A stretch of 64,000 nt of DNA from Thermoanaerobaculia bacterium (lineage in GTDB: Bacteria > Acidobacteriota > Thermoanaerobaculia > UBA5066), in the NCBI GenBank assembly GCA_963719225.1, contig CAVRAY010000001.1, positions 3,520,001 to 3,584,000 on the forward strand. Direction: 5' to 3'. The position numbers and the translations under genes were made by a program. The notes beneath the pieces are model-generated. The model did no database searches and had not been told where the DNA came from. It worked only from the letters and a program-made list of their open reading frames with translations. Shown one piece after another: positions 44,563 to 44,858 of this stretch. How positions within the stretch are numbered: the stretch's first letter is position 1; each line of letters starts with the position of its first letter.

Positions 44563-44591
44563 TTGACTCTCCGAGTCACGAGCTTTAGCGT
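44563..44591 (+). promoter_or_regulatory. Sigma70-type promoter of the met leader
   Basis: TTGACT-N17-TAGCGT ending 9 nt before the leader ATG. Confidence 0.65.
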
Positions 44592-44600
44592 CCGTCGAAC

Positions 44601-44735
44601 ATGCTGAACCGCCTCTCGCCCGCTTTCCCTGGCGCGACCGACGTCGCGGCGGTTCGAATTTGCATGTGCATGTGCTCGATGTCCGGCGCTCCTTCGCGGG
44701 AGACGGACGGAGGCTTCGCGAGGTCCGGCACGTAA
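44601..44735 (+). CDS. Putative Cys/Met-rich leader peptide (44 aa)
   Basis: MLNRLSPAFPGATDVAAVRICMCMCSMSGAPSRETDGGFARSGT*; TGC ATG TGC ATG TGC TCG ATG at 44661-44681. Confidence 0.78.
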   Translation: MLNRLSPAFPGATDVAAVRICMCMCSMSGAPSRETDGGFARSGT

Positions 44736-44793
44736 GACCGAAGCGAAACCAGGCGAACCGAGAGCACTGACTTCCCAGCTCGTCGGATTTCCC

Positions 44794-44828
44794 AACCGGC
44801 CCTCTCACGCGAGAGGGCCGGTTTTTTT
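44794..44828 (+). terminator. Intrinsic terminator (attenuator) upstream of metY
   Basis: Perfect 13-bp stem AACCGGCCCTCTC-acgc-GAGAGGGCCGGTT running into a T7 tract, 30 nt before the metY ATG. Confidence 0.9.
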
Positions 44829-44858
44829 GTATTCACAAATCCAGAAGGAGAAGACGCC

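Follow-up and report, generated by a model that had tools for sequence, protein, structure and literature searches.

A Predicted Ribosome-Coupled Attenuator with Methionine and Cysteine Control Codons Precedes metY-metX in Thermoanaerobaculia

Introduction

How is a metY-metX pair controlled when none of the usual devices stands in front of it? Methionine genes are textbook cases of control by SAM riboswitches, T-boxes or repressors. The window analyzed here, a 64,000-nucleotide stretch of a Thermoanaerobaculia genome, instead carries a short open reading frame rich in methionine and cysteine codons, followed by an intrinsic terminator, directly before metY. A preliminary description proposed that this leader works like the trp and his attenuators, such that a ribosome stalled for lack of either Cys-tRNA or Met-tRNA would mask one arm of a protector hairpin, free an antiterminator and permit read-through. 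Dual-input attenuation has precedent in thrL (Thr/Ile), and Lyubetsky and colleagues are said to have conducted large comparative screens of attenuators. Here, we ask whether the leader is likely to be a ribosome-coupled attenuator, what it would sense, and how widely it occurs.

Results

Promoter, leader reading frame and downstream genes

The features of the locus are collected in Table 1. Members of the MetY family make homocysteine or cysteine. The gene that follows metY scores 294.9 bits with TIGR01392, below the cut-off of 500, and is called metX-like here. The ribosome-binding site of metY, AAGGAG at 44845-44850, lies 3' of the terminator.

Table 1. Features of the metY leader region and the genes downstream, in window positions
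Feature	Position	Strand	Basis or remark
Sigma-70-type promoter, TTGACT-17 nt-TAGCGT	44563..44591	+	Sequence; pattern kept in the family
Predicted 5' hairpin	44599..44667	+	Start codon paired with the Cys21-Met22 codons; -31.5 kcal/mol
Near-leaderless leader ORF, 44 codons	44601..44735	+	Upstream Shine-Dalgarno absent
Control codons C21-M22-C23-M24-C25-S26-M27	44661..44681	+	Core M-x-M-C conserved
Protector hairpin (anti-antiterminator)	44682..44707	+	About -10 kcal/mol
Antiterminator 5' strand	44694..44710	+	Inside the ORF; partner 44796-44812
Predicted spacer hairpin	44758..44786	+	Between stop codon and terminator; excludes the nested helix
Intrinsic terminator	44794..44828	+	13-bp stem (-27 kcal/mol) and T7 tract
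metY, O-acetylhomoserine/O-acetylserine sulfhydrylase, 441 aa	44859..46184	+	TIGR01326, 660.5 bits (cut-off, 495.1)
metX-like homoserine O-acyltransferase	46181..47230	+	Overlaps the metY stop; TIGR01392, E 7.7e-88

The promoter and the near-leaderless reading frame with its C-M-C-M-C-S-M cluster were both found where the preliminary description had placed them. The -35 element (44563-44568) and the -10 element (44586-44591) are followed, after 9 nt, by the ATG at 44601. A consensus promoter scan called no site between 44563 and 44591 (0 found), and the promoter assignment therefore rests on conservation in the family: the strict pattern TTG[AC]CN-16..18-TANNNT is present at 31 of 38 same-family loci. 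At the family loci with the pattern, the distance from the -10 element to the start codon is 7 to 12 nt and mostly 9 nt, and from this geometry transcription is predicted to start approximately 2 to 3 nt 5' of the leader ATG. Directly upstream, on the same strand (window 44202-44519, +), lies a gene for an RRM-type RNA-binding protein with a Gly-rich tail (NCBIfam Rbp_regulator), the synteny of which with the leader is held in the genus and not in the family.

All 37 distinct family leaders have an ATG or GTG, located 35 to 42 nt after TTGAC, in frame with the Met/Cys cluster, even as the length of the ORF ranges from 23 to 56 codons. All of the cysteine and internal methionine codons of the leader ORF fall within the cluster at 44661-44681. 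Such density is rare: the whole genome has 31,444 short ORFs, and 29 of them reach at least five Met/Cys codons in nine. The metY leader is the only one of the 29 that precedes a terminator. A low-complexity T/G-rich stretch outside the window (G000:C1, approximately 56,000 to 62,000) yields many spurious Cys/Met/Phe ORFs and resembles an artefact of assembly or base calling.

Conservation across metY loci

We fetched 210 metY loci, namely, the 30 best relatives, 60 from the class, 40 from other classes of the same phylum and 80 named loci. After removal of 6 duplicates and of 10 loci whose upstream DNA was too short or that had no anchor, 194 remained. Of these, 94 carry an ORF upstream of metY with at least four Met/Cys codons in nine, and a terminator accompanies 90 of those 94 leaders, one of them (L090) doubtful. 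Leader and terminator occur together at 38 of 38 own-family metY loci having upstream DNA; when the same test was applied to 1,435 control windows from upstream regions of the organism's own genome, 11 passed. Other families of the class carry leaders at 5/6 (f16), 2/2 (f17), 7/7 (f5), 2/2 (f20), 1/1 (f21), 1/1 (f22), 5/8 (f11), 10/12 (f8), 0/1 (f19) and 2/8 loci, the last in f14, a large family that is thinly sampled. Beyond the class, leaders were found at 5 of 40 loci from other classes of the phylum and at 16 of 68 named loci, 13 of which have a terminator too: two from Longimicrobium, ten deltaproteobacterial and one from a record titled Acidimicrobium. Met/Cys leaders recur across the class Thermoanaerobaculia, Longimicrobium and deltaproteobacteria. 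None of the conclusions drawn here depends on the unpublished genome G037.

Several of these loci depart from the simple arrangement. At one deltaproteobacterial locus (L165:707-1073, +), metY is preceded by a tandem of two complete units, each made of a Met/Cys leader and a terminator, and in several f5/f22 leaders (L048, L049 and L051) the spacer is long and contains additional hairpins or another terminator. A metY locus of Bacteroidales (L211) has a very cysteine-rich leader ORF, with nine Met/Cys codons in nine, and the terminator scan detected no terminator after it. The metY genes of Longimicrobium (Gemmatimonadota; L134 and L136) are approximately 79% identical to that of the window, and their leader and terminator are of the same sequence type, which hints that metY may have been transferred along with its leader. 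Unlike these, Gemmatimonadaceae metY loci carry SAM-alpha riboswitches.

In a search of transcript data, the best run contained a fraction of 0.18 of the words of the stretch, and none reached one half. RNA-library contigs from four sets include relatives' leaders, in pieces corresponding to 44597-44767, 44596-45073, 44645-44820 and 44552-44725; such contigs are uninformative on starts, ends and levels, and one piece includes the promoter, so that they are no evidence of expression.

The control codons

The strict alternation of Cys and Met codons emphasized in the preliminary description is not a conserved feature, and what is conserved is the core M-x-M-C. In an alignment of 28 leaders, Met22 is kept in 28, Cys25 in 27 and Met24 in 25, and Cys21 (16/28) and Cys23 (17/28) are variable. 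Cys25 is encoded by both synonymous codons, TGC in 20 leaders and TGT in 7. Across 87 distinct clusters, at least two methionines are found in 85 and cysteine in 80 (at least two in 59 and fewer than two in 28), counts that are biased outside the organism's own family, where loci were selected by their sum of Met and Cys. The seven Cys-free clusters all belong to f8, in which 7 of 10 leaders are without cysteine. Cysteine accounts for 200 of 380 non-Met cluster codons and 14 of 1,113 downstream codons, an enrichment that is overstated since the clusters are defined by these very residues.

We considered whether cysteine-rich leaders were tied to the absence of cysE, such that cysteine would come only from homocysteine, and rejected the idea, as Cys content did not track cysE. 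Matches to cysE, mostly below the curated cut-off, were found in 30 of 30 f1 genomes, 10 of 12 f8 genomes and 0 of 7 f5 genomes, and the CBS model matched cysK-type genes nearly everywhere and hence did not discriminate between genomes. Nine deltaproteobacterial clusters (L149, L155, L158, L161, L173, L186, L191, L193 and L201) are of the MMMCC type, often with CC. Their leaders end in G-R-G-G-x-x-M-stop, the DNA of that ending pairs with the leader's own terminator arm, and own antiterminator/terminator pairs are better than swapped ones in 9 of 9.

Switch helices and other structures

The terminator and the antiterminator carry most of the structural evidence, and both stand as first described. 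The terminator stem (44794-44823; 13 pairs) runs into a T-tract at 44822-44828 that ends 30 nt 5' of the metY ATG at 44859; its alignment has 98% of cells paired and 4 pairs with compensatory changes. The antiterminator is a long-range helix (approximately 100 nt) that pairs at 14 of 17 positions with the terminator 5' arm and loop, has 6 pairs changed on both sides, and outscores every slid register in covariation. For each element the covariation score was reached by 0 of 500 shuffles, although such shuffle counts overstate the support because the relatives are not independent but kin. In 69 of 80 loci, a set that leaves out 6 tandem, gapped or doubtful ones, own antiterminator/terminator pairs beat swaps between groups; for swaps made inside the family group, the own pair was better in just 15 of 34. 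The antiterminator strand of distant groups changes together with a different terminator. Duplex energy alone is weak evidence for the antiterminator, being better than dinucleotide shuffles in 13 of 90 loci in a first version of the comparison and 27 of 80 in a later one.

Support for the remaining helices is graded. The protector hairpin folds at the site first proposed for it and alters the outcome of masked folding at transcript end 44818, and its conservation is modest: 75% of cells are paired across 28 leaders and the covariation is marginal, with 28 of 500 shuffles reaching the score. A nested helix of 10 pairs, 3 of them G-U, can be drawn between 44720-44729 and 44782-44791 in this sequence, as was first noted. 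We rejected it as a part of the switch, as 52% of cells are paired across relatives, 348 of 500 shuffles match its covariation, and it competes with the spacer hairpin. A similarly placed spacer hairpin is predicted in most family spacers folded singly, but RNAalifold did not recover it as a consensus, and the terminator was the only element to emerge. Finally, a 5' hairpin that the preliminary description does not mention would bury the start codon and is predicted to be lineage-restricted: its z-score is -3.8 here, and only 10 of 37 family leaders outperform their shuffles at p<=0.05.

Folding with a stalled ribosome

We computed equilibrium folding snapshots at set transcript ends with a ribosome masking the RNA at a given codon. 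At transcript end 44818, the antiterminator had a probability of 0.87 to 0.94 for most masks from Met24(+12) to Met27(+9), 0.33 for the Met27(+12) mask, 0.22 with no ribosome and 0 with a ribosome at the stop codon. For stalls at Cys21 to Cys23, the probability was 0.02 to 0.07, and the protector won. Thus, stalls from Met24 to Met27 are predicted to hold the antiterminator and stalls from Cys21 to Cys23 are not, and the proposal that a stalled ribosome masks the protector arm and frees the antiterminator would hold for the second half of the cluster and not for the first. At ends 44812-44815, the antiterminator formed even without a ribosome (0.95) and under almost any early mask, and in the full-length leader the terminator won under every mask. 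Because the equilibrium outcome depends on length, the switch would rest on kinetics beyond these snapshots. Among relatives, sequestration of the terminator arm was higher in the stalled than in the stop snapshot in 77 of 80 cases, a generous figure in that the best stall codon was chosen per locus, and the stalled state beat random-segment controls in 63 of 77 (median, 0.71 versus 0.48).

Other regulators of sulfur amino acid genes

The leader matches no riboswitch, SAM included: an Rfam scan returned nothing at gathering level, and the best hits (E 0.15) were to unrelated families. When 100 metY loci were scanned, Rfam hits were found at 0 of 54 leader-bearing loci, and SAM-I or SAM-alpha riboswitches were found at 7 of the 46 others, which suggests that the SAM riboswitch and the Met/Cys leader are alternative devices at metY. 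The genome, which is 97% complete, has a single SAM-I riboswitch, before a homocysteine methyltransferase/MTHFR gene (L031, G000:C2:432164-435296), and neither a T-box nor MetJ was found in it. A transposase-like ORF is inserted just upstream of that SAM-I locus. A crude and insensitive scan of the genome gave no clear second amino acid leader-plus-terminator unit. Elsewhere in the genome, a cysK/CBS-like gene lies beside a cystathionine-lyase-like gene; given this pair and the chemistry of the MetY family, cysteine could lie downstream of MetY, and a cysteine input could be logical. The metY loci of another family (f40; L115-L118) have no Met/Cys ORF, no Rfam hit, and a conserved terminator-like hairpin, sometimes repeated, that is possibly another undescribed control element.

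Discussion

How the leader would govern metY-metX is predicted from its anatomy, conservation, covariation and folding. Transcription would start 2 to 3 nt before the leader AUG, and a ribosome would load without a Shine-Dalgarno sequence. With ample methionine and cysteine, the ribosome would reach the stop codon ending at 44735 and cover the antiterminator strand inside the ORF, and after its release the protector could hold that strand. With the antiterminator strand covered, the 13-bp terminator would form and transcription would end 30 nt before metY. A ribosome waiting at Met24, Cys25 or Met27, however, would cover the 5' arm of the protector and leave 44694-44710 free to pair with the emerging terminator 5' arm and loop, and polymerase would enter metY-metX. 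The conserved frame, promoter spacing, cluster and switch helices, together with the lack of a riboswitch match, support the trp/his-type reading, and we consider it very probable that the leader is a classical ribosome-coupled transcription attenuator. The predicted signal of the attenuator is charged elongator Met-tRNA, to which this family likely adds Cys-tRNA.

The same device might sense methionine only, with the Cys codons either carried along in an ATGTGC repeat or not numerous enough within the sensitive window to have an effect. Methionine is indeed nearly universal (at least two in 85/87 clusters), seven f8 clusters lack cysteine and 28 clusters have fewer than two, and Cys21 and Cys23 (16/28 and 17/28) are variable and predicted to lie outside the sensitive window. 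Cys25, by contrast, lies inside the predicted window, is better kept than Met24 (27/28) and has undergone synonymous change; moreover, cysteine is present in 80 of 87 clusters, and the deltaproteobacterial ones often have CC. A methionine-only sensor therefore seems unlikely to us, if by no means far-fetched, and within the attenuator reading we lean toward cysteine as a real second input. Methionine is the universal element, and cysteine, which this family retains at the critical position, is likely a second input that varies between lineages; an OR gate for methionine and cysteine shortage is plausible.

An undescribed riboswitch or a protein-binding leader might toggle the terminator independently of translation, the ORF being incidental; the leader is structured (z -2.8), the spacer hairpin recurs, and in the genus a gene for an RNA-binding protein lies directly upstream. 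That gene is absent in distant family members, RNAalifold yields no aptamer-like consensus besides the terminator, and the frame and Met/Cys codons are kept between phyla while the flanks and the type of terminator differ, and we regard such a switch as improbable. Little different in standing is arrest by the nascent peptide in response to SAM, homocysteine or sulfide instead of tRNA charging. Metabolite-sensing arrest leaders of the tnaC and CGS1 types exist, and the conserved residues here are gathered in a short motif; the only invariant ones, however, are the end products of the pathway, and residues upstream of the cluster that would occupy the exit tunnel are not conserved, such that arrest of this kind also has a slim chance of being correct. 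Soft metals are bound by Met/Cys-rich motifs, and the ORF might encode a small functional peptide, metal or redox binding, with its own terminator, metY being expressed by constitutive leak-through or from another promoter. A short ETDGG-like motif downstream of the cluster is conserved in the genus, but it falls on the antiterminator strand and varies together with the terminator. Furthermore, the length of the ORF and all of its other residues vary freely, and the genome has a single ORF-terminator unit of this kind, which sits before metY. We consider a functional peptide the least probable of these explanations.

The proposed attenuator resembles trpL, hisL, pheL, thrL (Thr/Ile) and ilvL in having control codons, a protector, an antiterminator inside the ORF and an intrinsic terminator. 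Those leaders respond to other amino acids, are unrelated in sequence and yield no Rfam match here, and the metY leader differs from them in its near-leaderless start and its long-range (approximately 100-nt) antiterminator helix. SAM-I (S-box) and SAM-II riboswitches and Met T-boxes occupy the same slot before metY (SAM riboswitches at the 7 leader-lacking loci); their sensing of SAM or uncharged tRNA is direct and involves no leader ORF, and none matches here.

The idea of methionine leader attenuation is not new, having been proposed for two organisms in the accessible parts of PMC3847290 and PMC8079986. The preliminary description knew of no Cys/Met attenuator for metYX, but in Campylobacter jejuni a 20-amino-acid MetL peptide with three Met codons and one Cys codon precedes cj1727c (labelled metY in Fig. 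S7)-metA, its RNA ends shortly past the stop codon, and attenuation was proposed (PMC3847290, accessible parts). The accessible text of PMC11955535 reports a Ribo-seq initiation peak for MetL and another Met-rich candidate in C. jejuni. MetL is similarly a short ORF with Met codons and a Cys codon directly before metY; it differs in having a Shine-Dalgarno sequence and 20 amino acids and in being confined to three Campylobacter species, and the accessible parts of both papers describe no protector or antiterminator, Cys sensing, starvation test or mutation test. In sequence, MetL and the metY leader were compared as far as their C-M dipeptide; their lengths, start type and base composition differ.

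In Streptomyces lividans, a leaderless 29-amino-acid metL with a Cys-Met-Cys...Met-Cys cluster precedes metNIQ and was named a methionine attenuator (PMC8079986). It resembles the metY leader in its Cys/Met cluster and in its leaderless start, which is predicted here from the promoter geometry, but it would control an importer, no intrinsic terminator was found, and a role of Cys is not discussed in the accessible text. Poly-Cys leader peptides were predicted in actinobacteria (PMC1262725, accessible parts), and those of Mycobacterium smegmatis were found by experiment to act translationally, by occlusion of the ribosome-binding site and with no intrinsic terminator (bioRxiv 10.1101/834739, accessible parts). 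These are leaderless short ORFs, as the promoter geometry predicts for the metY leader, and a sulfur amino acid is sensed by ribosome stalling, as is likewise predicted here. According to the accessible text, however, they have runs of Cys only, whereas the metY leader is Met centered, has no CC and has a strong terminator, with the metY ribosome-binding site 3' of it. In the literature searched, mostly open papers, no Met or Met/Cys leader attenuator had been put to a functional test, and neither the present leader family nor any case from Acidobacteriota was described. What is new here is a Met/Cys leader that is near-leaderless, has an intrinsic terminator, is class-wide and has no Rfam model.

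Such leaders matter because a complete, covarying terminator/antiterminator design is conserved class-wide among uncultured Acidobacteriota and reappears in other phyla, there taking the place of SAM riboswitches. The leader family marks a gap in Rfam, and the leader itself is a compact, portable construct with predictions at the level of codons, namely, that Met24, Cys25 and Met27 matter and Cys21 and Cys23 do not. It could serve to test for sensing of elongator Met-tRNA by ribosomes and for integration of both sulfur amino acids in a single leader. We tentatively entertain, at somewhat less than even chances, a broader reading in which Met/Cys attenuators of several phyla are the main RNA control of metY where SAM riboswitches are absent and M-x-M-C is a true OR gate retuned by lineage. 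Were that so, retuning would have produced a methionine-only version in one family, cysteine-rich versions in deltaproteobacteria and tandem copies elsewhere, and in this organism's own genus the 5' hairpin would bury the leaderless AUG and make attenuation a one-ribosome event, in which a single ribosome does the measuring.
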